Assembly: GCA_021286705.1 (NCBI GenBank)
Contig: JAJTBW010000003.1
Location: 1 to 49,491, forward strand
From: Sphingobacteriia bacterium
GTDB lineage: Bacteria; Bacteroidota; Bacteroidia; Bacteroidales; TTA-H9
Direction of reading: 5' to 3'
DNA: 49,491 bases
Shown here: one piece after another, positions 2,769-16,281 of the stretch
Layout of the letters: each line of letters opens with the position of its first letter
How positions within the stretch are numbered: the stretch's first letter is position 1
Position numbers and translations under genes: made by a program
Notes under the pieces: generated by a model
The model's input: only the letters and a program-made list of their open reading frames with translations
Told to the model about the DNA's origin: nothing
Database searches by the model: none

Positions 2769-3932
2769 ATGAAGACATTTTGCTCTATATTATTAATTCT
2801 TATAGCAACTCATTTTCAGGTTATCGCAGAAAATGATAGCCTCCTCAATTTAAAACTCAATCAGGCATTTGAGCTAAAAGAGAGTGGCTTAAAACAGATT
2901 GAGGCAATCAATGATTCAATGAAAGGAGCATCCTATAGTAACCTAATTGGTCTGCTTAACAATTACAAATTAGTTGCAACGGCAGACAGTACCATAAATG
3001 TCATCTATGCTGATATGTATACCAATCAGCGATTGATCCATAAAAATTTAATTATCAAACTCGATTCGTTAGGTATAAACCCGGATAAACCTAATTTCAA
3101 CAAAAGTCAGGGACGAATAGGCTGGAGCCATTATGGCTTCTTCACACTTCTCATACTTATATCAATACTCTCTCTTATTGCCATTAAGCTGTTTATGAAA
3201 CAAAAAAAACTATCACAAGAAATAGAGGCACTATCTAAAAAGCCTGAACCTGACGAAACACTAAAAAAGATAAATGAAGAATATGAACAGCGGCTTCAAG
3301 ATATCTCCGGATTGTTAACAGAGATGACATTACAGCATAACAATACCGCAACTGAGATTGAAAATCTTAACAAGGTTCTGGCTAAGGAGAGACAGACCCG
3401 AATAGCCTACTCAGAGCAGTATGAGAAAGTAGCAGATGAACTTAATAAACTAAAGGCAAGAAATGATCTTTGGCCTACCATAACCGGATCGGGAAACAGA
3501 GAAAGCACCGAGCATCTCAATGTAGAGATTGAGAAACTTCAAATTGAGATAAATGATCTAAAAGCAGGAAAATTCGCACTTGAACAACAACTTAAAGAGG
3601 CACTATTAAAATTAAACTCTGAGGAACTGCCAAATCTGCCTGATCCAAGAGTTATCAATTCAGAATTTCAAGAAAACGACCATTTAAAACAGACAGTGCA
3701 CACATTAAGAGCCTCTCTGAAAGAAAGTGTTGCCGAAGGAGAAAACCTTAAAATTGAGCTAGCATCCCTGCAAAAGGAGATAGAGATACTTAATAATAAT
3801 TCGATTGTTTCTGCTCAAAACCAAAACCGAATTGAACAGCTTGAGGAAGAATTAAAACAGAAACAATCCTTTATAGACCAGTTAAGAGCATTAATTACGG
3901 GTCAATCAGACGGACCAAATAGCGAAACATAA
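2769..3932 (+). CDS. Hypothetical membrane-anchored coiled-coil protein
   Basis: Signal peptide, one TM helix (YGFFTLLILISILSLIAIKLF), long E/K/L/Q-rich heptad C-terminus; 31-bp convergent overlap with next gene. Confidence 0.75.
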   Translation: MKTFCSILLILIATHFQVIAENDSLLNLKLNQAFELKESGLKQIEAINDSMKGASYSNLIGLLNNYKLVATADSTINVIYADMYTNQRLIHKNLIIKLDSLGINPDKPNFNKSQGRIGWSHYGFFTLLILISILSLIAIKLFMKQKKLSQEIEALSKKPEPDETLKKINEEYEQRLQDISGLLTEMTLQHNNTATEIENLNKVLAKERQTRIAYSEQYEKVADELNKLKARNDLWPTITGSGNRESTEHLNVEIEKLQIEINDLKAGKFALEQQLKEALLKLNSEELPNLPDPRVINSEFQENDHLKQTVHTLRASLKESVAEGENLKIELASLQKEIEILNNNSIVSAQNQNRIEQLEEELKQKQSFIDQLRALITGQSDGPNSET

Positions 3933-4564
3933 AGCCAGGCAAGCCCTTCTGAAATTACCGCCCGAGTGCCACGAGACGACCTCCACCATCTGCCACCATC
4001 ATAAGTATCATCTTGATAGGTCACAACACCTGTGTTCCATCCATCTGGATGCAATGTCTTCTTAAAAATCAGCCAGCTTCTTCTTGAGTGTACCCCCTGT
4101 GAAAGCAATAAAATATTACCTGGCTTTACTCCGGATGATCTTAGCCATATCGCCAAAGCCTGAGCCGAGGCCACCGACCTGTTTCTTGTAACAGGGGCAG
4201 ACGGAATACAATGTAAAATTGTTGAATCAACGCCGAGTTTTAAGAGCGTATTATAGGCAACCTCAGCAGTTGAAGTATAATCAAGCAAATACTTACCCTG
4301 CATAACTTGTTGACCTGTGACACAAACCATTGTAAAGCCCCCTTTTTTAATAAAGTCGGCAGCCGTCGTCAATGCTAGATCATCTACCCAACCCTCTACA
4401 ATAAGTATTTTAGTCGTAACGGGCTTCTGCGGAGAAAGAAAACTCACAGCATTTGTGAAAAGCAACCAAACCAACAGAGCAAACATGAGCACAAAAAGCA
4501 AAGCCCCTTGCCAGGTAGGGACTAACAACTCTTTACGATAGAATAGCTTAAACTTTATTCGCAT
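3902..4564 (-). CDS. YdcF/ElyC/SanA (DUF218)-like protein
   Basis: N-terminal TM, ILIVEGW, VCVTG, HSRRSWLIF motif, C-terminal SE..AWLY. Confidence 0.75.
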   Translation of the reverse strand: MRIKFKLFYRKELLVPTWQGALLFVLMFALLVWLLFTNAVSFLSPQKPVTTKILIVEGWVDDLALTTAADFIKKGGFTMVCVTGQQVMQGKYLLDYTSTAEVAYNTLLKLGVDSTILHCIPSAPVTRNRSVASAQALAIWLRSSGVKPGNILLLSQGVHSRRSWLIFKKTLHPDGWNTGVVTYQDDTYDGGRWWRSSRGTRAVISEGLAWLYVSLFGPSD

Positions 4565-4593
4565 CCTGTTAAAGATTTCATATCAATGATGTA

Positions 4594-4601
4594 CAAAGGT
4601 A
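4594..4601 (-). promoter_or_regulatory. -7 promoter box for the DUF218 gene
   Basis: TACCTTTG. Confidence 0.55.
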
Positions 4602-4673
4602 TGCCATTTTAAATCCGTAATCCTTCTGGGACAAGGATTACAATAATCAACGAGCAATCTGTTCATAATCATT

Positions 4674-4728
4674 TAACATACCTATAACAGATGATTAACC
4701 CACGTACTAAAAAGAGAGTATACTTTTG
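4674..4728 (+). promoter_or_regulatory. Three TAAC(A/C) direct repeats with 11-bp period upstream of a -7 box
   Basis: TAACA at 4674, TAACA at 4685, TAACC at 4696; TACTTTTG at 4721-4728. Confidence 0.55.
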
Positions 4729-4839
4729 CCTCTGAAACATTGGTCTTGCTATAAGATTACCCCAACAAAAAATGATAGGTAGAATCTTTCAAAACGGGCA
4801 GCCGAAAGTAACGAAAACATATTAAATCAAGTCATAAAA

Positions 4840-5247
4840 ATGAAAAACATTCTCTCCTCAATTCTGGTTATTTTCTGTTTATCACTTTCAGCAAACATGG
4901 TTTTAGCTGCAAGTCATAACGATAATGATGGAAAAGATTTATCAAAGGGAGTTTCTACACAAACAGCTACTCCGGCAGAACCAGCTCCAGCGGTTCAGAG
5001 TGCTATAAGTGGAAAAGTAACCGATATTCTAACCGGAGAAACACTTTCAGGTGCTGAAATTACAATTGAAGGAACGAACACTAAGGTCTACACTGACCTT
5101 GATGGTAACTTTAGCATTCCTCAGCTAAAACCAGGAAAGTATACCCTCATCTGCTCTTTAATCTCTTACAATAAGAGTTTAATAGAGAAACTTGAGGTTA
5201 GTTCTGATAAAACATCTTGTGAAATTGCTTTAGAATCTGCGCGTTAA
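4840..5247 (+). CDS. Small exported carboxypeptidase-regulatory-like domain protein (stand-alone SusC N-terminal-type domain)
   Basis: Signal peptide, P/A/T linker, ISGKVTD..TGETLSGA.I.IEGT....TDLDGNFSI..LKPGKYTL. Confidence 0.85.
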   Translation: MKNILSSILVIFCLSLSANMVLAASHNDNDGKDLSKGVSTQTATPAEPAPAVQSAISGKVTDILTGETLSGAEITIEGTNTKVYTDLDGNFSIPQLKPGKYTLICSLISYNKSLIEKLEVSSDKTSCEIALESAR

Positions 5248-5278
5248 TATAGTAACATCTCCATTCCTAAAATTTTCA

Positions 5279-5311
5279 AGAGAGAGTACCCGGGAGGCTC
5301 TCTCTCTTTTT
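5279..5311 (+). terminator. Intrinsic terminator
   Basis: agagagagt...gctctctct followed by T-run. Confidence 0.65.
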
Positions 5312-5503
5312 ATTTAGGGTGGTTAGTATTTCGGCTTTAAGACAGAGAGGTTTGGCTATTGGCATATCTTGTATGATTGTAACATTGCTAGGGTAATACC
5401 ATCGTAGGTAGTAATATATAAAGAACTATAGTAAGGCGTTTTAGTGGGAACTTGATACTAAAGCACCTCTTAATCTAATTTTTGAAAAAAAGAGAGAGAT
5501 TAG

Positions 5504-5532
5504 TGTAACTTTTTTGATAGTTGAATGTCATA
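5504..5532 (+). promoter_or_regulatory. Candidate ECF-sigma (sigmaE-like) promoter
   Basis: GTAACTT-N15-GTCATA ending 26 bp before the ATG; no TAnnTTTG box seen there. Confidence 0.45.
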
Positions 5533-5558
5533 CTTGAAAGCAAAACAACTCAAATAAT

Positions 5559-6371
5559 ATGAAGAAAATAATCTTAATTGGTCTTTTACAAGCCATCATG
5601 TTGGTAACCGGTGTTAGTCTATTTGGACAAACTACTAAAGAAAACAGAAATCCCGGAAAGTTTTCTTCCATTGAAAGCAATAGCAGCGTTGACATCATAC
5701 TAAAACAGGGTTCCGAGTGCAGCATCGTTGTAGAAGCTGACAACGATATTATCTCGAAAGTCAGAACAGAAGTAACAGGTGGTAGGCTGACCATTGGACT
5801 AGAAAGAGGAAGCTATAGAAACATTAAAGTATTACGCGCCACCGTTACCTTACCTAGTTTGAAAGAGCTCCAAATCAGAGGGTCAGGTGATGTCACATCA
5901 ATTGGAACAATTGAAGCGCAAGATCTTAAGATAGATATTTATGGGTCGGGGGATGTTGATCTTGATCTTAAATCTACAAATACAAAAGTTGAGATCAGAG
6001 GTTCAGGTGACACCGATCTGAAAGGATTAAGAGGTAACCTTGATATATCTATCGTTGGATCCGGTGATTTTGAGGCCAAAGCAGTGCAATTAGAGAAACT
6101 AATCGCAAGGATACAAGGATCGGGTGATGTATCAATTACCGGAGCAACGCAAAGTTCAGATATTGAAGTCTTAGGTTCAGGCGATGCTAGTTTAAAAGAT
6201 CTTAAAGCTCAAACAAGTAGTGTCTCATTAAGAGGATCAGGAGAAGTTGAAGTCTATGCCTCAGATGAGATCAAAGCAGAGGCTTATGGATCAGGCGATA
6301 TGATCATCTACGGTAACCCTAAAGTTAAAAAAGTTACCCATCGTGGATCAGGTGAATTAAGTTACAAATAA
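5559..6371 (+). CDS. Head-GIN domain protein (DUF2807, putative adhesin-like beta-helix)
   Basis: Signal peptide ending FG|Q; repeated I.GSGD(V) units; C-terminal IYGNP..V....GSG. Confidence 0.9.
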   Translation: MKKIILIGLLQAIMLVTGVSLFGQTTKENRNPGKFSSIESNSSVDIILKQGSECSIVVEADNDIISKVRTEVTGGRLTIGLERGSYRNIKVLRATVTLPSLKELQIRGSGDVTSIGTIEAQDLKIDIYGSGDVDLDLKSTNTKVEIRGSGDTDLKGLRGNLDISIVGSGDFEAKAVQLEKLIARIQGSGDVSITGATQSSDIEVLGSGDASLKDLKAQTSSVSLRGSGEVEVYASDEIKAEAYGSGDMIIYGNPKVKKVTHRGSGELSYK

Positions 6372-6413
6372 GACATCTGCTAAAAGGTCTTTCTTCAAAT
6401 CTCTGCGGATGTT

Positions 6414-6445
6414 AGCCCCTGAAATTAATTTCGGGGGCTTTTTTT
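6414..6445 (+). terminator. Intrinsic terminator
   Basis: agcccctgaaat-ta-atttcgggggct followed by T-run. Confidence 0.9.
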
Positions 6446-6654
6446 ATCCCTTATCACATCAGGGGTATTCAAAATACACAACCATTAGTCCAAATAATTG
6501 AAAACTGAATAGAAACTAGCCGCATCAGGCTTTTCAAAATGGGTAAAATATAGTACTTTTACCCATATCAACGTGTTTATTACCAATTTGAATATCGAGT
6601 GAGAAAACAATTCACTTATTGGTATGTTTCAAATAGAAGATATAAACTAGAAAA

Positions 6655-8556
6655 GTGGAGAGCCAGATGAATTTAAAACACATAAACAGATCAATAATTC
6701 AGTTAGTTAAACTTAGTCTCTTTAGCTTCCTACTCTTAGCTACTAATTTGATCTATGGAACTAACCTCGCTTTTACAGGTCACCCAACTACAAAGCAGTT
6801 CATTGATACTAAGGAAAGCGGGGGTTATAGTTCGACCGAACATGATCGTTTGCTTAATGAGATGAGCATTATTAAGAGCGAAAATGAGAGACTACGGATT
6901 ACTAAACAGGTTCTAACGGCACTGGTAGGATTCACTATGCTCGTATTCTTCTTTTGGTTAGTCATGAGCAGAACTAAACTTCGAAGACAGATTCAGGAAG
7001 AGAAAGATAAGCTCAGTAGATTTAAGGATGATACGATTAGAAATCTAGATATATACCTGGGAAACCTCAGCCATGAATTGAGAACGCCGTTAAATGGAAT
7101 TACCGGAGGGACGGAGCTTTTAAAGTACACTAATCTAACTGATAAGCAAGAGGAGTTTATTAACCTTTTGGATGTCTCATCCTCAAATATGTTGGCTGCA
7201 ATCAGTGATTACGTCGAGATATCAGATCTTGAAAGGAATGGAGAGACAACGCCAGTCAATCTTCATCACCTAACAGGAGACATTATCGATATGATTAGTG
7301 ATAAGGCAACAGAGCAAAGGATTAAACTAAATCTCTATACAGACACAAAGATACCTCACACTCTTTATCTGAACCAACCAGCAATCCGAAAAGCAATTAC
7401 TGGTTTTCTGAGACTGGCAATTTATCGTCCGAATACTACTGAGATCTCGTTAAAATGCGAGTTGGTAAAGCAGACAGGAAATATATCATCCTTAAAGATC
7501 TCATTTATTGATAATGGAGTGCCCATCATTCCTCAGCGTTTTAAAGAGTTGCTCAATGAAGAGCTTCCAGAGGAGGTAAATCTGTTAGATCTTATTGATC
7601 AGAACAGTGAGCATAAAATCAAAACACTCGCAAAAGTAGTTAAAGGGATAGATGGGGCTTTAGGATTAGAGCCATCATCAGAAAGAGGGAATATCATTTG
7701 GTTTACCTTAGTAGCCAACAGCGAAGAACCTTCTAGTGAAGCAATGGGGATTCACATAATGAAACTACCCAATTTAAAGGGGCTAATAGTTGATGATAAT
7801 CCGAATTCAAGAGCCATCTTCAGGCAGTATATGCAATTTTATGAGATGCGACCAAAAGAGGTGGAGACAGTAAATCAAGCTTTTGAACTACTTAAGACCG
7901 AAGAGACTCACTATCCAATAGTACTACTAAACCTAAGATATCCAACTGCCACCTCCTTATCTGGAATTCTTGAGTTCAAAAAAGCAAATCCTGAATCCAA
8001 GACACGTTTCATCTTGGTCTCTTCAACAGCTATGCCCCTAACCTATCAAGAGTTTAAAGAGTACGGAATTGATGCCATTCTGAGTAAACCTGTAAAGATT
8101 CATGAGTTATATCACATTATCGAAAAGCTTGCGGAAAAAGCCCCTATTCGACCCACCATCAACACAGAGACATCTCAAAGTGAGAAACCCGTTGTCTTGT
8201 TAGTTGAAGATAACATCATTAATGAAAAAGTCGCAAAAGCAACGCTTGAAAGACTAGGATATACAGTCGATGTAGCCGAGAACGGAAAGGTAGCCTTGCA
8301 AAAATACATTGAACACAGATATGATTTAATCTTGATGGATATAGAGATGCCTGAGATGGATGGTATACAAACTACTATCAAAATTAGAGATTTTGAAGCC
8401 TATTCTCCAATAGCGAAACATCCTAGGATCATAGCAGTAACGGCCAATGTTAAACCGGGAGACCGTGAGTTATGCATAAAAGCCGGTATGGATGACTATA
8501 TTAGCAAACCATTTAAACATGAAGAATTAATAAAAGTGCTGACATCAAACAAATAA
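6655..8556 (+). CDS. Membrane hybrid histidine-kinase-like protein: intact HisKA, degenerate HATPase, pseudo-receiver plus canonical receiver
   Basis: Two hydrophobic segments; SHELRTPLNGI; N-box Asn and G2 box absent; REC1 LLNLRYP (Asp to Asn); REC2 DLILMDIEMPEMDG...SKPF. Confidence 0.85.
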   Translation: MESQMNLKHINRSIIQLVKLSLFSFLLLATNLIYGTNLAFTGHPTTKQFIDTKESGGYSSTEHDRLLNEMSIIKSENERLRITKQVLTALVGFTMLVFFFWLVMSRTKLRRQIQEEKDKLSRFKDDTIRNLDIYLGNLSHELRTPLNGITGGTELLKYTNLTDKQEEFINLLDVSSSNMLAAISDYVEISDLERNGETTPVNLHHLTGDIIDMISDKATEQRIKLNLYTDTKIPHTLYLNQPAIRKAITGFLRLAIYRPNTTEISLKCELVKQTGNISSLKISFIDNGVPIIPQRFKELLNEELPEEVNLLDLIDQNSEHKIKTLAKVVKGIDGALGLEPSSERGNIIWFTLVANSEEPSSEAMGIHIMKLPNLKGLIVDDNPNSRAIFRQYMQFYEMRPKEVETVNQAFELLKTEETHYPIVLLNLRYPTATSLSGILEFKKANPESKTRFILVSSTAMPLTYQEFKEYGIDAILSKPVKIHELYHIIEKLAEKAPIRPTINTETSQSEKPVVLLVEDNIINEKVAKATLERLGYTVDVAENGKVALQKYIEHRYDLILMDIEMPEMDGIQTTIKIRDFEAYSPIAKHPRIIAVTANVKPGDRELCIKAGMDDYISKPFKHEELIKVLTSNK

Positions 8557-8566
8557 CAGACTAACA

Positions 8567-9670
8567 ATGAATACAATTAAGAAGATCCTTGTTATTGAAG
8601 ACACTGAGGATGTAAGAAATAACATCAAAGAGATACTTGAGACAGAAGATTACGAGGTCTCTACTGCTGAAAATGGGAAGATAGGAGTTGATGTCGCCTT
8701 AGCTAATACACCTGATCTGATCATTTGTGATATAATGATGCCAGAATTAGACGGTTATGAGGTATTAGAAAGATTAAGAAAGGATATTCGTACTGCCACT
8801 ACCCCTTTCATTTTCCTCACTGCAAAGAACACCAGAGAAGACCATCGTAGGGGAATGGCTCTTGGAGCAGATGATTACATAGCAAAACCTTTTACAATCG
8901 ATGAGCTTATTAACGCAGTTGAGGCTCGCATTAACAGAGCACATGAATTTAAGCAAAAGAGTGAGGAAAAACTTAACGAACTGACACGAAATATGGGAAC
9001 ACCCATTACACGTGTTATTCAAGAACCACTTAAGGCAGTGATAGGTTTCTCGCAATTGGTCATGACAGAATATGCCAATATGGAGAAACCCGAGATAGCT
9101 GAATTCATGTCGCTAATCTTCAAAGCCGGGCTTAAACTCAATGGGATCGTTCATAAGACGCTTCTCTATTATCAGCTTGAGGCTGCTATTTTCAACCCAA
9201 CCACATCTGATCTATTAAAAAAACAAGGTGCTTCTGATAGCCATCCAGCCATTCAGGATGCTATAAATGAGTTAGCTCAACGATATGGTCGTCAGGCCGA
9301 TCTACAACTTCATCTAGAGGCTCATAATGCCGTAAAAATCCCATTTGATCTCCTTAAAACGTTGGTTAGTGAAGTAATAGAAAATGCAATGCTCTATTCA
9401 CCAAAACGAACCCCTATTAAGGTTATCTCTGGAAGCGACCAGGAAAAGACTGTTATTACCGTAGCCGACGAAGGACTAGGGATGTCTGATGAACAAATAT
9501 CAAAGACTGGTGCTTTCTCTACACTCTCAACAGATGGGCAAGAAGCTGAAGGTGTAGGACTAGGTCTTACAATTACAAGAAAAATTGTAGATCTTTTTGG
9601 AGGCTCTCTCTCTATAAGAAGTACGCCAGGGATAGGAACAACTGTTAGGATAAACATTCCAAATATTTAA
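8567..9670 (+). CDS. Receiver + His-less HisKA-like + intact HATPase protein
   Basis: REC DLIICDIMMPELDG; PITRVIQEPLKAVIGFS in place of xxxHELRTPLNGILGFS; ENAMLYS, DEGLGM, GVGLGL, GIGTTV. Confidence 0.85.
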   Translation: MNTIKKILVIEDTEDVRNNIKEILETEDYEVSTAENGKIGVDVALANTPDLIICDIMMPELDGYEVLERLRKDIRTATTPFIFLTAKNTREDHRRGMALGADDYIAKPFTIDELINAVEARINRAHEFKQKSEEKLNELTRNMGTPITRVIQEPLKAVIGFSQLVMTEYANMEKPEIAEFMSLIFKAGLKLNGIVHKTLLYYQLEAAIFNPTTSDLLKKQGASDSHPAIQDAINELAQRYGRQADLQLHLEAHNAVKIPFDLLKTLVSEVIENAMLYSPKRTPIKVISGSDQEKTVITVADEGLGMSDEQISKTGAFSTLSTDGQEAEGVGLGLTITRKIVDLFGGSLSIRSTPGIGTTVRINIPNI

Positions 9671-9674
9671 TGAG

Positions 9675-9708
9675 AAAAGCCCCAACACTTAGTTGGGGCT
9701 TTTTTTTT
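9675..9708 (+). terminator. Intrinsic terminator
   Basis: aaaagccccaac-actta-gttggggctttt plus T-run. Confidence 0.9.
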
Positions 9709-10998: not shown

Positions 10999-11364
10999 TT
11001 AAGCAATCATTTCATTTACCTTCTCCAGAAATTCACTTATAGAAAACGGCTTATGAAGCACCTGCTTATAGCCTATGACTTGTACCATCTTTAAGTAATC
11101 ATTTGACCCAATTCTTCCACCACCTGACATTACAAGAACTGGGAAAGTGTGACCAGAGTCTTTAAGACTAAAAAGCAGCTCGAAACCATCAGAATCGGGC
11201 ATGATAATATCAGTGACGAGCAAGTCGGGCTTAACAGTTGTAAGTAATTGCATTGCCTCCAGACCATCCTGAGCCTCATAAACAGAAAAACCTTCACGCT
11301 CTAAGACATCTCGTAATCCCTCTCGAACCATCTTTTCATCCTCAACCAGAATAATCGTTTTCAT
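10999..11364 (-). CDS. Single-domain response regulator (CheY-like)
   Basis: ILVEDE, PDLLVTDIIMPDSDG, VMSGGG, LHKPF; no output domain. Confidence 0.9.
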   Translation of the reverse strand: MKTIILVEDEKMVREGLRDVLEREGFSVYEAQDGLEAMQLLTTVKPDLLVTDIIMPDSDGFELLFSLKDSGHTFPVLVMSGGGRIGSNDYLKMVQVIGYKQVLHKPFSISEFLEKVNEMIA

Positions 11365-11657: not shown

Positions 11658-12845
11658 CTATTTAGGTCTTCTTTCGTAACTTCCATATTTAACAATAACG
11701 GTATCTTTTACCATCCATTCACCTCTCGCCATTGTACTGATCAGAGAAAGATCGTCAGGTTTAAGAAGAAGAAGATCAGCATCAGCCCCAGAGGTCAATC
11801 GCCCCTTACTATTAAGCTTTAGGATTTTTGCCGGATTAAGGGTAACAGGTAACAAGGCTAAATCTAATTTCATTCCTTCATAATGAACACAGTCTGCCAT
11901 CTCCTTTAAATTTGAGTGAGGAGTTGCAGTTACCATACTGGTCAACTCGCCTGTCACAGGGTCAAAGCCGGGAAGAGAACCGCCGGCATCACTGGTAAAA
12001 GTAACATGCTCAGCAGGTACGCCTGAATCGATGAGCAATTTATAGGCTTTACTGGGTTTAATCTCCTCATCCTGATAATATGGATAGCTGGAGGTTGTTA
12101 TATCTACAAATCCTTTTACGCCATAGGACTTAGCATCTTCGAAAATCCACTCATTACGATTACAGTGAGTGGGAAGGAATTGTCTGAACTGAAGCATACT
12201 CTCATTTACCGCCTTATAAATCGGAGCAAACGGTTCTTTGGCATCTCCCATATGAAGATTCACAATTCCTGCTTTTCCACCAAGCATACCTCCTACCCTA
12301 GCATGTGCCGCAAGTCTGATCAGCTCAGCTGTAGGCGGAACAGACGAACGATGATCAGAGATAGCCACTTCGCCAACCCCAATCACTTCTTGAATCATTG
12401 AAATATCCTTAGAAACATCGCCTAGAATGGTAGGAGTTGGATGTTGATATGAACCGGTATAAATCCAAACAGATAAGCCCTCAGCATTAAGACCTTTTGC
12501 TCGCATAAGTACTGACTCAACAGTTCTGGTAACCCCATCGGTTCCCAGACAACCAATAATCGTAGTAACACCAGCTGTGGTATAATCGCTTAATTGAAGT
12601 TCTGGAGTACGTGACGCTGGGCCTCCTTCCCCCCCAGCTCCGGCTATATGTACATGCGCATCAATCAGCCCAGGTACAACTATCATTCCCTCAGCATCAA
12701 TCACCTCGACATCTTCCAAATTGATATTTATATGCTCTGAGATCTGCAGGATTTTATCACCACCTATCAGGATGTCCTTTTTTCCAAGATAAGAGGGAGA
12801 ATAAACTTCACCCCCTTTAATAAGTTTCACTAGATTTTTATGCAT
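11658..12845 (-). CDS. iadA: Isoaspartyl dipeptidase / beta-aspartyl peptidase (amidohydrolase superfamily)
   Basis: DAHVHIAGAGGEGG, GCLGTDG, TGSY, GEVAISDHRSS, NLHMG, PTHCNR, TSDAGGSLP; start moved to ATG 12845 (MHKNL); no signal peptide. Confidence 0.93.
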   Translation of the reverse strand: MHKNLVKLIKGGEVYSPSYLGKKDILIGGDKILQISEHININLEDVEVIDAEGMIVVPGLIDAHVHIAGAGGEGGPASRTPELQLSDYTTAGVTTIIGCLGTDGVTRTVESVLMRAKGLNAEGLSVWIYTGSYQHPTPTILGDVSKDISMIQEVIGVGEVAISDHRSSVPPTAELIRLAAHARVGGMLGGKAGIVNLHMGDAKEPFAPIYKAVNESMLQFRQFLPTHCNRNEWIFEDAKSYGVKGFVDITTSSYPYYQDEEIKPSKAYKLLIDSGVPAEHVTFTSDAGGSLPGFDPVTGELTSMVTATPHSNLKEMADCVHYEGMKLDLALLPVTLNPAKILKLNSKGRLTSGADADLLLLKPDDLSLISTMARGEWMVKDTVIVKYGSYERRPK

Positions 12846-12930
12846 ATAGGATTTATTTTTTAACAACTCATAAACACTTTTAAAAATAGTGTATTTTAAC
12901 GATCTTATATAAAAACTTAAAATAAAAACA

Positions 12931-14925
12931 ATGTTCACTAAAGTTAAACTTAACGTTATCAGACCATATCGAATACTTCTTGGTTTGGTTCTAGTGTCAG
13001 TAATTCACATTAACTCTTATTCTCAGGGTAGATTTTTGATTGTTGGAGGGGGCAATGAAAAAGAGACTACCAATAGTTGGAGCACGCCTGCATACAAATG
13101 GGCTGCTGAGGGGAAAAGAGTTGCCATCATCTCGACATCAGGAAGTGGTTATCCAGACTACTTTAAGAATTGGTGCAATGCCAAAGATGCAAAAGACTTC
13201 ATTGTAGCCAATAGCACTACGGCGAATCAACCCGCCTTATATGACTCCTTAACAACCTACCAAGTAATCTTCTTTGCCGGTGGAGATCAATGGGACTATT
13301 ATTCTCAATACAAAAACACAAAACTAGAAGAGGCCGTAAACGCCGTGTACATTTCAGGCGGGACAATTGGTGGAACCTCAGCCGGAATGCACATTCTTTC
13401 AGAGACCCTCTTCACTGCCGAAAACGGTACCGTTTACCCTGATGAATGCATCATCGATCCAAAAAACAAATATGTTAAACTAGCCAATGATCTCTTCAAT
13501 TTTTTCCCCGATCTGATTTTTGATACCCATATGGCAGAAAGAGGGAGAATGCCTCGATTGATCTCATTTGTTGCTAACAAAGCCCTAACTGACAATACGA
13601 AAATCATAGGACTTGGTCTGGATGACATGACATGCATGACCATCGATGAGTTTTCAGTCGGGACAGTATACGGAACGGGGGTAGCCACAATCGTTAAAAG
13701 TGAGCCAAGCAATTTTACCCAAAATGATGGAAGGTTAATTTCCGATAACGTCAGGATCACCCAACTTCTTGAAGGATCTACCGTAAATATGAAAACAATG
13801 GAGATCCTTACCCAAAACATGTCATTAACAATCACCCCAAAAACCAAAGGAGAAAATAGCTTATTGACCATTGTTGCAGGAGGAGAGGGATCAAATGGTA
13901 ATAACAATACTTTATTAGACTTCTGGGCAAAATTGGCAGCACCTTCCCAAACTACTTTGATTATCACAAAGGAGGTCAATGCTTATGTTACAGATCTAAA
14001 GAATAAAGTAGAACAACTGACTGGAAAATCTGCTATAGTGGTAATAGCATCAACAACCAATGGAAGTTCAACAACAGTTTTATCACAAATACTCTCATGT
14101 GGAAGAGTAATTTTTACTGAGAATGAAGATAATATAGCATCAACCTTCCTTCAATCCGAGAATGGACAAACACTACTAAACCAGATTAAAAGTCAAAACT
14201 TGCCGGTTGCCTTCCTAGGTTCAGATGCCAGATTCATTGGAAAATCGGTCGTAACAAACCTAGAGACCGAATATGCATCTTATGATGGAAAAATGAATTT
14301 CCTGCCCGGAATCGGACTATTATCAAACACCGTAATAATTCCGGAGACCTTCAGCAATTCTGATTTTTATGAGAATACAATTACCGCTTTGCCCTACGCT
14401 ATGATTCTTGATTCACTGCAATATGGCATTTGGTTAACGGGTGATAATTACGTATGCTACTCGACTAACGGATCAAAAGCAACCTTACTAGGTGGAGGGA
14501 AAGCCCCAGTCCTTCTTTTAACTAACAATGGTGATATTATTGCAGATTTTAGTTCAAAAACAGCCAATGGAAGTACCAGCATTAAACCTAGGCAAGTCGC
14601 TGGTTTTTCAGAGATGACCTTTACCTCGTTTGATGATTCTAAAGAGATTACAGTTGGAAACAGTGTAGCCATTGAAAACATTGAAAAAGATCATAATCCA
14701 ATTTCTATTACAGTAATTGATAATGAAGTGACATTCTCAGAGATATCATTACCATTTAGCTATAGACTAATTTCAATAGATGGAAAACTCATTGACTCGG
14801 GAATAAGTTACATGCCTCATATATCGATTCCAAGAAATGCTTTAACTTCACCCCAAGTTATTTTGTTAAATGTCTCTTACGGAAAAAACACTCAGACCTT
14901 TAAACTCATTTTCCCGACAAAGTAA
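12931..14925 (+). CDS. Secreted cyanophycinase-family (peptidase S51) protein: active domain + degenerate duplicate + T9SS-like C-terminal domain
   Basis: Signal peptide ending SYS|Q; LIVGGG, FFAGGDQ, GGTSAG (Ser150), DTHMAERGRMPRL (His200), GLDD; second copy from ~aa311; C-terminal ISIDGKLI...LLNV....TQTFKLI. Confidence 0.85.
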   Translation: MFTKVKLNVIRPYRILLGLVLVSVIHINSYSQGRFLIVGGGNEKETTNSWSTPAYKWAAEGKRVAIISTSGSGYPDYFKNWCNAKDAKDFIVANSTTANQPALYDSLTTYQVIFFAGGDQWDYYSQYKNTKLEEAVNAVYISGGTIGGTSAGMHILSETLFTAENGTVYPDECIIDPKNKYVKLANDLFNFFPDLIFDTHMAERGRMPRLISFVANKALTDNTKIIGLGLDDMTCMTIDEFSVGTVYGTGVATIVKSEPSNFTQNDGRLISDNVRITQLLEGSTVNMKTMEILTQNMSLTITPKTKGENSLLTIVAGGEGSNGNNNTLLDFWAKLAAPSQTTLIITKEVNAYVTDLKNKVEQLTGKSAIVVIASTTNGSSTTVLSQILSCGRVIFTENEDNIASTFLQSENGQTLLNQIKSQNLPVAFLGSDARFIGKSVVTNLETEYASYDGKMNFLPGIGLLSNTVIIPETFSNSDFYENTITALPYAMILDSLQYGIWLTGDNYVCYSTNGSKATLLGGGKAPVLLLTNNGDIIADFSSKTANGSTSIKPRQVAGFSEMTFTSFDDSKEITVGNSVAIENIEKDHNPISITVIDNEVTFSEISLPFSYRLISIDGKLIDSGISYMPHISIPRNALTSPQVILLNVSYGKNTQTFKLIFPTK

Positions 14926-15030
14926 GAGACTATTCCTGAAAGACTGCCGCTCGATAGTCAAGTTTCGACACCTAAAATGATATCTGATAAAATCACCTTT
15001 ACTCAGTACACACCACACAAAATGCTTAGA

Positions 15031-16281
15031 ATGAAAAAGCTAACAATACTATTATTTATCATCACTTATGTCTCTTCATATAATCTAATTGCGCAAAATG
15101 GGCACCTGATGATCGTCGGAGGGGCATTAGAGGACACTAACCAAGCTATCTACAAGCGAATGCTGGAACTTGCAGGAGGACCAACCCAGGCAAAGATTGC
15201 TATCATACCAAGTGCCAGCGGATATGCTACTACAGGACCTCAGATATTTGCCAATAACTGCATTAAATTCGGAGCCTTACCTTGGAATTGTGAAATCATT
15301 CAAATTGCATGCGTTGATGATCCGGACACTAAAGAGATAGATGAATCTACATGGGCATCAAATGCCAATAATCCCGAAATAGTTCAAAAGATCAAGGAGA
15401 GTAACCTTGTTTGGTTTACCGGTGGTGATCAGATGAGGACAATGAAACTCTTGATTCCAAATGGAAAACCTACGCCTGCATACGAAGCAGTTGTAGATGT
15501 TCTTAACCGTGGCGGTGTAGTTGCCGGATCTAGTGCCGGAGCAGCTATACAAAGCATCGTAATGATAGGTGGAGGAACCTCTTTAGGAGCTATAATCAAT
15601 GGCGAAGCTAGTTCTATCGAGATGACAGAAGAACCCGATCATGAAGGCATCTACTTAACAAAAGGCTGTGGTTTCTTTCCATACGGCATTGTTGACCAGC
15701 ACTTCAGTCAGCGGGCTAGACTAGGCAGATTAACATTAGCAGCATGGCTAAACAGAGAAAAATGGAGTCAGGCAATAGGAATTGATGAAGACACAGCCCT
15801 AGAGGTAGATTTAAAGAATGGAACTGGAATGGTATGGGGAAGAAATCACATTCTTGTAATTGACTTAAAACAGAGTCAAGGAATAAAGAACGATCAAGGA
15901 TACTCTTTCAAAAATGTCTCACTATCAATCTTACAACAAGGAGATGAAATCGATCTTAAACAAGGACAAATTACTATAGCCAAAGATAAAACACTATTAA
16001 AAAAAGAGACAAAAGACAAGAGAACCAGCTTTATTCAAACAGGTGCCCTTGGTGGCGATGGCTATTCACTTATTGACATGGTTGGAGAAATTATAACACA
16101 TAGTGAAGAAGAAGAGACTTTAAACAATTTAACACTGATTAGTCAAGATACGGCTGTACAATTTAGTCTTAAGAATACAAAAGAGACTCTTTTATATCGT
16201 TCAACCAAACAAAAGAACCGTTTCTCGGTTACTCATCTATCATTTGACATCACACCACTAAAAATTAAAGTTCTTAAATAG
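15031..16281 (+). CDS. Exported cyanophycinase (CphE-like, peptidase S51)
   Basis: Signal peptide MKKLTILL...LIA|Q; LMIVGGA, IIPSAS, VWFTGGDQ, AGSSAGAAI, VDQHFSQRARLGRL, GIDEDTAL give a complete Ser-His-Glu triad. Confidence 0.92.
   Translation: MKKLTILLFIITYVSSYNLIAQNGHLMIVGGALEDTNQAIYKRMLELAGGPTQAKIAIIPSASGYATTGPQIFANNCIKFGALPWNCEIIQIACVDDPDTKEIDESTWASNANNPEIVQKIKESNLVWFTGGDQMRTMKLLIPNGKPTPAYEAVVDVLNRGGVVAGSSAGAAIQSIVMIGGGTSLGAIINGEASSIEMTEEPDHEGIYLTKGCGFFPYGIVDQHFSQRARLGRLTLAAWLNREKWSQAIGIDEDTALEVDLKNGTGMVWGRNHILVIDLKQSQGIKNDQGYSFKNVSLSILQQGDEIDLKQGQITIAKDKTLLKKETKDKRTSFIQTGALGGDGYSLIDMVGEIITHSEEEETLNNLTLISQDTAVQFSLKNTKETLLYRSTKQKNRFSVTHLSFDITPLKIKVLK

Follow-up and report, generated by a model that had tools for sequence, protein, structure and literature searches.

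The window analysed here, a stretch of 49,491 nucleotides from a Sphingobacteriia bacterium (contig JAJTBW010000003.1 of assembly GCA_021286705.1), carries two adjacent genes on the plus strand, called here P1 (the upstream gene, 6655-8556) and P2 (the downstream gene, 8567-9670). As judged from the sequences and from predicted structures, P1 is most like RetS, the kinase-dead relative of histidine kinases from Pseudomonas aeruginosa, and P2 is a receiver-controlled kinase (Rec-HK) of the LvrB class that is missing its phospho-acceptor histidine. The favoured but tentative interpretation is that P1 is a RetS-like pseudokinase, with phosphatase and phosphotransfer activity, that controls the histidine-less Rec-HK encoded next to it.

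The P1 open reading frame (6655-8556) encodes 633 amino acids from a GTG start, an ATG at 6667 being the other possible start. Its parts are listed below, where DHp denotes the dimerisation and histidine phosphotransfer domain, CA the catalytic and ATP-binding domain and REC a receiver.

6655 to 8556, plus strand: P1, membrane-anchored hybrid histidine pseudokinase of 633 amino acids, with transmembrane segments, DHp with His140, degenerate CA, pseudo-receiver and receiver.
7057 to 7233, plus strand: HisKA/DHp domain of P1, residues 135-193 (Pfam HisKA, E 2.5e-12).
7255 to 7770, plus strand: degenerate CA domain (pseudo-ATPase) of P1, residues ~201-372, with Leu254 in place of the N-box Asn, a G1 box reading DNGVP and no G2 box.
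7771 to 8154, plus strand: pseudo-receiver of P1 (REC1), residues ~373-500, with Asn426 at the phospho-Asp position and Asp380 and Lys478 kept.
8191 to 8553, plus strand: canonical receiver of P1 (REC2), residues 513-633, with Asp562; the best Pfam Response_reg stretch is 514-629.

Compared with a competent HisKA hybrid kinase, P1 has the histidine of the H-box and does not have an ATP-binding CA domain (N-box Asn, DxGxG and GxGxG). The codon of His140 lies at 7072-7074, within an H-box of S-H-E-L-R-T-P-L-N-G-I that includes the E/D-x-x-T phosphatase motif. The eroded N-box region reads KAITGFLRLAIY (residues 246-257) and the DNGVP of the G1 box occupies residues 286-290. Pfam finds HisKA and two Response_reg stretches in P1, with no HATPase_c match at E<=0.1, and the NCBIfam BarA model aligns as one stretch over residues 134-630 with a score far under its cut-off. 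An AlphaFold2 model of residues 109-372 (mean pLDDT 80, pTM 0.70) has a helical hairpin and an alpha/beta CA-like domain. The residues that had been singled out in P1 by the original prediction, which was made from the DNA letters and a list of reading frames (His140 in SHELRTPL, an eroded ATPase domain with DNGVP and no G2, Asn426 and Asp562), were all confirmed, and Pfam agrees with them. The 108 N-terminal residues are variable (mean identity 0.23), some orthologues have a single transmembrane segment, and no sensor domain was found in P1 by Pfam.

The likeness of P1 to RetS is seen by sequence and by fold. When the DHp and pseudo-CA region was compared with PDB by phmmer, RetS (6dk8, 6dk7 and 7n0e_B) matched with E 4e-20 and GacS (7z8n) with 1e-16; a profile of the P1 family matched GacS and RetS at 8e-51 to 4e-49 and HK853 at ~1e-21; and Foldseek again placed GacS and RetS at the top (E 3e-16 to 3e-14, target TM-score up to 0.75). 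RetS is the best solved-structure match of P1 by sequence and shares the top place with GacS by fold. In the alignment of the two proteins, DNGVP of P1 lies opposite DSGHP of RetS and neither protein has a G2 box. According to PMC5992135, the HATPase domain of RetS is degenerate and without G-boxes, and RetS retains both the histidine and HExxT; P1 likewise combines a degenerate HATPase domain with His and HExxT, and its two tandem receivers include a second one that is phosphorylatable. In the same source and in excerpts of PMC8498467, RetS is described as acting without the use of ATP. The original prediction had left RetS out of account, a protein that has the degenerate architecture of P1 and acts without ATP.

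The features of P1 recur in its orthologues; the counts given for these refer to ten genome orthologues unless otherwise said. Matching losses are found in orthologues that share just 31-38% identity, and these features are therefore not due to chance. The N-box Asn is kept in only one orthologue (that of locus L098), the second Gly of the G1 box in none, Pro mostly taking its place, and the G2 box in none, a conserved F/L-L-D-x-L-D-P...K/R motif being found in its position. The phospho-Asp position of REC1 is N, S or C in all ten, with Asp380 and Lys478 kept, and in REC2 residues D519, D562, T596 and K618 are invariant. Thr144 and E/D141 are each kept in all ten and His140 in eight, a pattern in keeping with a function for which the phosphatase motif matters more than the histidine. 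The two replacements are to Gln in genome G010 (L096) and to Tyr in genome G004 (L101), each of which is backed by a second, non-identical sequence (P0362 for Gln and P0366 for Tyr). In both of these genomes, and in genome G006 discussed below, Asn273, DxGxG and GxGxG of P2 are all intact. His140 is also retained in L120 and L127, in the family member P0364 and in P0419, whose CA domain is half intact, with the N box and DxGxG in place and a degenerate G2 box (57 bits to HATPase_c).

P1 can appear to be an orphan, but this is an artefact of word-indexed searching, which gave just two close homologues; the orthologues of 31-38% identity escaped it and were exposed by synteny. A profile search of 1.84 billion representatives gave only ~8 full-length, single-stretch members of the P1 family.

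The P2 reading frame (8567-9670, 367 amino acids) has the following parts, where alphaS is the signalling helix and the asterisk marks the absence of the phospho-acceptor histidine.

8567 to 9670, plus strand: P2, Rec-HK of architecture REC-alphaS-DHp*-CA, 367 amino acids, without phospho-acceptor His.
8585 to 8923, plus strand: receiver of P2, residues 7-119, with Asp55 (Pfam Response_reg, E 1.8e-31).
8933 to 9211, plus strand: DHp-like helical hairpin of P2 without His; the codon of Arg149 is 9011-9013, and the E/DxxT motif is lost too.
9332 to 9667, plus strand: CA domain of P2 with intact N, G1 and G2 boxes (Asn273, D301xGxG, G329xGxG); Pfam HATPase_c covers residues 262-365 with 72.6 bits.

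The column of Arg149 aligns with the His of PHELRTPL in histidine-bearing relatives, and P2 has no HisKA match in Pfam. The DHp-like region instead shows the conserved motif G-x-P-I-T-x-x-x-x-E-P-L-K-A-I-x-G-F-S. The ATP-binding boxes read ENAMLYS (Asn273), DEGLGM (301-306), GVGLGL (329-334) and GIGTT (355-359), so that what had been claimed for P2 at the outset (Asp55, intact N/G1/G2/G3 boxes and Arg149 at the histidine position) was borne out in full, again in agreement with Pfam. Among 14 members of the P2 clade there is no variation at Asn273, in the G1 box D301-E-G-x-G or at G333, and G329 and G331 are nearly as constant, differing in the divergent L116; in two further clade alignments the residues of the N, G1 and G2 boxes are fully invariant. 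Asp55 is invariant in the clade alignments, and the receivers of the two genomes of the genus share 97% identity. A borderline match to HATPase_c_2, of the anti-sigma kinase type, was also obtained (27.9 bits against a cut-off of 27.4).

The full-length AlphaFold2 model of P2 (pLDDT 79) contains a long helix (111-143) and a helical hairpin (148-209), its best structural match is LvrB (8vc9, E 5e-18), and the best NCBIfam model for P2 is LvrA. When set against the LvrB class of Rec-HK, P2 has the REC-alphaS-DHp-CA order with the receiver Asp, and it has the ATP boxes; the phospho-acceptor His is absent. Directly before the position of the lost histidine lies an invariant Gly144-x-Pro146 (residues 144-147, window 8996-9007), and in the model the signalling helix and DHp helix 1 are broken at 144-147, unlike in canonical kinases.

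The absence of the histidine extends well beyond the window. The best 120 P2 homologues of similar length were taken; the top 98 (42-91% identity, ~364 amino acids) have REC and HATPase_c with no HisKA call, and the next 22 (~40% identity; cyanobacteria, Anaerolineae and others) have HisKA. The outgroup alignment reads P-H-E-L-R-T-P-L where the P2 clade has G-x-P-I-T-x-(V/E)-I-x-E-P-L. The histidine column holds R, A, D, E, N, Q, K or S in the clade and His in only one of 15 members (P0093), and no column with an invariant His was found in two clade alignments. A full-length P2 alignment, when used to scan genome contigs, picked up receiver motifs and yielded mostly distant histidine-bearing relatives, with only L001 in the clade; clade members were then gathered by genome search and by a metagenome scan with an alignment of the P2 C-terminus. 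Of 400 other genomes sampled across the class, four carried a clade member, and these four belong to one family. In a tree of 44 rows (a quick search, with SH-aLRT support only) the P2 clade comprises 33 rows with support 99, of which 29 are His-less and four His-bearing. The latter form one nested subclade, and therefore the histidine was either lost several times independently or regained once. L114, L115, L128 and P0093 belong to this subclade, with H-E at the acceptor position (P-I-T-H-E-L-N-x-P-L).

P2 from the family (11 rows) is sister to a His-less group of eight rows; in the five loci of this group with flanking DNA to inspect (L001, L121-L124) the upstream frame encodes 253-254 amino acids, confirmed by Pfam as REC-LytTR in L001 and L124. 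Elsewhere in the clade a divergent, intact kinase gene lies beside the P2-like gene, either REC-HisKA-HATPase_c (L113-L116 and L128) or REC-PAS-HisKA-HATPase_c (L125 and L126). Since His-less members thus occur in other lineages beside LytTR regulators or intact kinases, the loss of the histidine from P2 is, on the sequences compared, older than the pairing with P1, and the pair is not a case of reciprocal co-degeneration.

Among longer relatives of P2 are tandem (REC-DHp-CA)x2 fusions of ~760-775 amino acids (P0241, P0243 and P0245), of which two have no phospho-acceptor His in unit 1, with ATP-binding boxes in both units. P0241 has Gln at the position in unit 1, whose N, G1 and G2 boxes are intact, and keeps P-H-E-F in unit 2; P0245 has Lys in unit 1 and His in unit 2; and P0243 has His in both. 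By their motifs these fusions look like an intramolecular asymmetric kinase dimer, and they provide evidence of a Rosetta-stone kind that a unit of this class without His is able to work next to a His-bearing DHp; in them the partner is a paralogue and not a P1-type protein.

P1 and P2 travel together within one family of Bacteroidales. An orthologue of P2 (55-92% identity) is present in ten of the 12 other genomes of the same family, and in nine of these ten loci a P1 homologue (33-82% identity, 566-667 amino acids) lies directly upstream. In the two remaining genomes, G002 (97% complete) and G011 (76% complete), neither a P2 nor a P1 orthologue was found. The exception among the ten is G006 (89% complete), where P2 is present, no P1 orthologue was found and the upstream frame is Q_salvage-like; the best P1-like match of that genome is an intact PAS-HisKA-HATPase_c-REC-REC kinase on another contig. 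The gap between the two genes is 10 bp in the window and ranges from -8 to +16 nt in 12 loci (including the window and two metagenome loci). The reading frames of the pair are intact in all ten genomes. Between the two genomes of the genus, the nonsynonymous divergence (dN) of P1 is 0.048 in the DHp, 0.098 in the pseudo-CA, 0.102 in the pseudo-receiver and 0.077 in REC2. The synonymous divergence (dS) is saturated, and for most domains the comparison is therefore given only as a small dN against a saturated dS and not as a dN/dS ratio. The expectation that orthologous pairs would keep their reciprocal losses under purifying selection is thus upheld as far as a family-level clade with low dN is concerned, and fails for His140, which is replaced in two of ten.

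The unit is bounded by two hairpins.

6414 to 6439, plus strand: terminator-like hairpin of 11 pairs, six of them G-C, followed by a T-run (from a consensus terminator scan); it ends the upstream DUF2807 gene and forms the 5' boundary of the unit.
9672 to 9706, plus strand: intrinsic-terminator-like hairpin with T-run that closes the unit (-22.3 kcal/mol, z -6.5).

The second of these was found by folding, none of 200 shuffles folding as well, and was not listed by the consensus terminator scan; with it, both the 10 bp spacing and the downstream terminator of the original prediction were verified. Metatranscriptome contigs from two runs of one study match the unit, one of 3065 nt (6572-9636, depth 30) and one of 2965 nt (6691-9655, depth 32), both lying inside it; in one of these two runs a separate contig at depth 116 spans 6400-6530, and the ends of the contigs coincide with the two terminators. 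A contig of 236 nt from another study bridges the P1/P2 junction. In two further RNA runs (X17 and X20) the unit is covered incompletely and at depth 1-3, and the gaps there carry no meaning. These are assembled contigs, which do not prove a single transcript and which could reflect carry-over of DNA. The stretch was detected at 0.7 or more of sampled words in 14 metagenome rows from 10 studies, one of which may be its source, the habitats being wastewater, sludge, bioreactor, fuel-cell, biofilm, retting and marine-sediment. By its conservation, its coupling and its apparent co-transcription, the pair is a functional unit.

In the mechanism proposed, the module would derive from a hybrid kinase and a receiver-controlled kinase, as in LvrA/LvrB, each partner having lost a different catalytic element. 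P1, membrane-anchored and blind to ATP, would use its DHp helix with the invariant E/D-x-x-T to dock receivers and to set their level of phosphorylation, the likely targets being the Asp55 receiver of P2 and its own Asp562 receiver. It would act as a phosphatase and, where His140 is kept, may also carry out reversible His-Asp phosphotransfer, as do RetS, RedE and ChpT. Phosphorylation of the P2 receiver would then release the ATP-binding domain of P2, as in LvrB. Since P2 has no histidine of its own, the ATP-dependent output must act on another protein. The two replacements of His140, the occurrence of P2 without P1 and the loss of the P2 histidine before the pairing all fit such a RetS-like role for P1, in which E/D-x-x-T and REC2 would matter more than the histidine.

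Several points weigh against this proposal. It leaves the strictly conserved ATP boxes of P2 without a named substrate, and eight of ten P1 orthologues have a full H-box with His although P1 cannot autophosphorylate. A histidine that is kept in such a protein calls for a phosphodonor, and this is best explained by a kinase split between the two proteins. Furthermore, the proposal leans on the dispensability of the histidine for HisKA phosphatase activity, which is general background. P1 is without the periplasmic sensor of RetS, having no Pfam sensor domain and a variable N-terminus. The contact between P1 and P2 is inferred, as are the direction of phosphate flow and the substrate of the P2 ATPase domain, and no significant pairwise similarity was found between the cores of P1 and P2 (E 0.22). 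By comparison, RetS has an active kinase, GacS, as its partner, and the DHp domains of these two share 56.9% identity (PMC8498467).

The possible split into a class I kinase on two polypeptides is the reading closest to the original prediction. Here phospho-Asp55 would free the CA domain of P2, and this domain would phosphorylate P1 in trans at His140, whether the two proteins share a DHp heterodimer or meet as separate dimers; from His140 the phosphoryl group would go on to Asp562 and/or return to Asp55. The parts are indeed complementary, with His only in P1 and the ATP site only in P2, and this state is kept in eight of ten genome pairs with tight gene coupling and RNA-library contigs that match the pair. 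The ATP boxes of P2 are conserved across its clade despite the missing histidine, His-less units often adjoin a His-bearing DHp (the seven loci L113-L116, L125, L126 and L128), and in two tandem fusions a His-less first unit (Gln in P0241, Lys in P0245) is joined to a His-bearing second unit. Taken together, the clade-wide ATP site, the H-box in most P1 proteins and the His-less units beside His-bearing DHp domains are best explained in this way, and domain statistics have led to the prediction that class I split kinases exist (PMC3591291). However, His140 has become Gln (L096, P0362) or Tyr (L101, P0366) while the cognate P2 keeps its ATP boxes, G006 has P2 behind an unrelated gene with no P1 found in a genome that is 89% complete, and the sister group of the family P2 is equally His-less with REC-LytTR in the place of P1. 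The two DHp domains also come from different subfamilies, and LvrB is held to autophosphorylate "likely" in cis (partial text of PMC13269768), which, if shared by P2, disfavours use of a partner's histidine in a heterodimer. The split is on balance considered rather unlikely, though trans-phosphorylation of His140 is kept as a serious competitor of the favoured reading. An obligate heteromeric kinase centred on His140, as first envisaged, is not supported, in view of the Gln and Tyr orthologues, of P2 without P1 in G006 and of the P2 loss that predates the pairing. The accompanying idea that each protein supplies what the other has lost was to fall if orthologues occurred separately, and for P2 they do, in G006 and in other lineages. 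A narrower version, equally doubtful, is that the lineages with His140, the window included, have a genuine class I split kinase with P2 as its receiver-gated catalytic half and with His140 feeding Asp562 and/or Asp55 so as to close a feedback loop, the Gln and Tyr lineages being later derivatives that keep only the phosphatase or scaffold half. If this were true, the loop from His140 to Asp562/Asp55 could give switch-like behaviour.

Alternatively, the two proteins may be co-regulated and biochemically independent, which is regarded as improbable: P2 would be an ATP-dependent switch or a Ser/Thr-type GHKL kinase acting on outside targets, and P1 a phosphate sink or phosphatase for other kinases. 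The P2 clade does retain its ATP site in contexts without any P1, and the borderline HATPase_c_2 match of P2 (27.9 against 27.4 bits) points the same way. A candidate target would be a polysaccharide cluster of GT2, TackOD1 and HlyD-like genes, which in other lineages lies next to P2-like genes (convergent to them in six loci) and in this genome is on another contig; REC2 of P1 could be fed by the ~48 further receiver- or kinase-type matches and two Hpt domains of the genome. Against this stand the near-invariant adjacency and the close or overlapping frames across orthologues of 31-38% identity, which would be unusual for unrelated partners, and the coincidence of presence and absence of P1 and P2 across 12 family genomes, with the exception of G006 (P2 present, no P1 found). 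No conserved Ser/Thr acceptor was identified, and the link to the GT2 cluster is one of neighbourhood in other lineages only. It is very improbable that the genes are functionless, pseudogene-like relics of a former LvrA/LvrB-type cascade. Each protein does lack a residue or domain essential for canonical activity; set against this are intact frames in ten genomes, a dN that in all domains, even those that are degenerate, is far under the saturated dS, new conserved motifs where the old were lost (in P1 F/L-L-D-x-L-D-P, in P2 G-x-P-I-T...E-P-L-K), and RNA-library contigs over the unit at depth ~30. Decay was rejected on the low dN against saturated dS and on these contigs.

Around the pair, a conserved block in several loci consists of DUF218, a small CarboxypepD_reg protein, DUF2807, P1, P2 and EamA. 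In the window the genes upstream of the pair (3902-6371) are DUF218 on the minus strand, a small secreted CarboxypepD_reg-domain protein and a DUF2807/toastrack 'GIN' protein, which are also upstream of the pair in most family loci, and the DUF2807 gene is duplicated in some of these. A stand-alone receiver protein of 121 amino acids (10999-11364, minus strand) lies 1.3 kb downstream of the pair on the opposite strand, and its orthologue was seen only in the genome of the same genus (L095, 95% identity). Further on (11658-16281), an amidohydrolase (426 amino acids, minus strand) stands beside two Peptidase_S51 proteins (664 and 434 amino acids), an arrangement that we take to be reminiscent of cyanophycin or isoaspartyl-dipeptide utilisation. 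Elsewhere in the genome, contig C44 (L105:3672-7460) carries a paralogous, fully intact cascade, in which an 895-amino-acid GAF/PAS HisKA-HATPase_c kinase is followed after 37 bp by a 354-amino-acid Rec-HK with P-H-E-L-R-T-P-L (34% identical to P2). The count of ~48 further receiver- or kinase-type matches to P2 corresponds to 49 places when P2 itself is included, and the two Hpt domains are not informative for mechanism.

The cluster convergent to P2-like genes (L001, L113, L124, L126, L128 and L130) encodes an HlyD-like protein (~360 amino acids), TackOD1 (~466) and a processive-type GT2 (436), and in the genome of the window it lies on contig C197 (L200:1572-5424), away from P2. It is conceivable that the His-less Rec-HK clade ancestrally had this cluster as its output.

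Histidine kinases are usually seen as self-contained enzymes. From RetS it is known that one kinase can be controlled by a relative that is itself kinase-dead, and from LvrB how a receiver can switch on a kinase core; the locus described here unites both ideas in one operon, a RetS-like ATP-blind protein being followed by a receiver-controlled core without a histidine of its own. In the open-access papers and preprints searched, no published account of such a pair, of an operon of a RetS-like protein with a Rec-HK or of a His-less Rec-HK clade was found. Being small, conserved, soluble in part and, as it appears, expressed, the pair offers a convenient test of whether a class I kinase can exist as two polypeptides; it is also suited to asking what purpose an ATP-binding kinase core without a histidine serves. 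There is in addition a warning for annotation, as the label "hybrid sensor histidine kinase/response regulator" would be put on both genes, and relatives of theirs already bear names of this kind.

Of the known systems, RetS shares with P1 a membrane anchor, a HisKA domain with His and HExxT, a CA domain unable to bind ATP and two tandem receivers of which the second is the working one. The 7TMR-DISMED2 sensor module, a feature of RetS, is absent from P1, where there are only one or two transmembrane segments with a short loop of variable sequence. The N-box Asn is retained in RetS, for which P1 has Leu, and the RetS partner GacS is an active unorthodox kinase with a related DHp that is not an operon neighbour, whereas the neighbour of P1 is a His-less Rec-HK with an unrelated DHp. 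RetS is found in Pseudomonadota and P1 in Bacteroidota, and the likeness may therefore be convergence. REC1 of RetS is counted as a phosphorylation site (PMC5992135), unlike REC1 of P1, which has no Asp. RetS is described in the same paper as acting on GacS in three ways, among them the transmitter phosphatase activity of HExxT and the blocking of autophosphorylation by its catalytic core; action through REC2 and through DHp binding is also reported there and in excerpts of PMC8498467.

LvrA/LvrB of Leptospira resemble P1/P2 in forming an operon in which a hybrid kinase is followed by a REC-alphaS-DHp-CA protein of ~370-380 amino acids, and Asp55 of P2 corresponds to Asp56 of LvrB. Partial texts of PMC5863495 and PMC13269768 state that LvrA, from the same operon, phosphorylates Asp56 of LvrB and that this releases the CA domain, which phosphorylates His161, "likely" in cis; in the second of these LvrB is the prototype of a Rec-controlled histidine kinase. 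However, LvrA autophosphorylates, LvrB has His161 and both are active, whereas P1 has no ATP site and P2 has Arg at the histidine position and no E/DxxT; P2 also differs from LvrB in its invariant Gly-x-Pro helix break before that position.

CheA3/CheA4 of Rhodobacter sphaeroides and Hik36/Hik43 of Synechocystis, like the window pair, have the histidine carrier and the ATP-binding domain on two polypeptides, and neither half is active alone (as given in the available parts of PMC3591291 and PMC7656254). CheA3/CheA4 are class II, truncated proteins with an Hpt-like P1 domain and P3-P5, whereas the window pair is full-length with degenerate motifs and belongs to class I (HisKA/HATPase_c); the activity of the CheA3/CheA4 mixture has been demonstrated, and that of the window pair is hypothetical. 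By motifs only, the window pair does have a His carrier and an ATP module on two polypeptides; it has no CheA-type domains, and its complementary parts are not always retained together in orthologues, His being lost in two of ten and P2 occurring without P1. Class I split kinases are predicted only from domain statistics, by which 3.66% of HisKA proteins have no HATPase domain and 1.7% also have HE/DxxN/T (PMC3591291, in part).

ChpT of Caulobacter and RedE of Myxococcus have, like P1, a DHp with His and a CA-like domain that does not drive autophosphorylation, and in both of them (RedE within RedCDEF) the histidine is described, in sources available in part, as charged from a receiver and not from ATP. 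The anatomy of P1 appears compatible with a phosphotransferase of the ChpT/Spo0B/RedE kind, though its His is not universal: the histidine is essential in those proteins and replaced in two of ten P1 orthologues. Spo0B of Bacillus is said to be a kinase-like phosphotransferase of the ChpT type, and all three are soluble and have no fused receivers.

DivL of Caulobacter presumably has Tyr at the histidine position, as have the P1 orthologues L101 and P0366. It was deposited as a 'tyrosine kinase' (title of PDB 4q20) and, like PsmA of Streptomyces (PMC12963549, available in part), it is kinase-shaped and reported to signal without phosphorylation of a histidine. PsmA is described in that text as having no His, ATP motifs or D/ExxT/N, whereas P1 of the window keeps His and E-x-x-T; and in the window pair, in contrast to DivL and PsmA, each protein retains what the other has lost.

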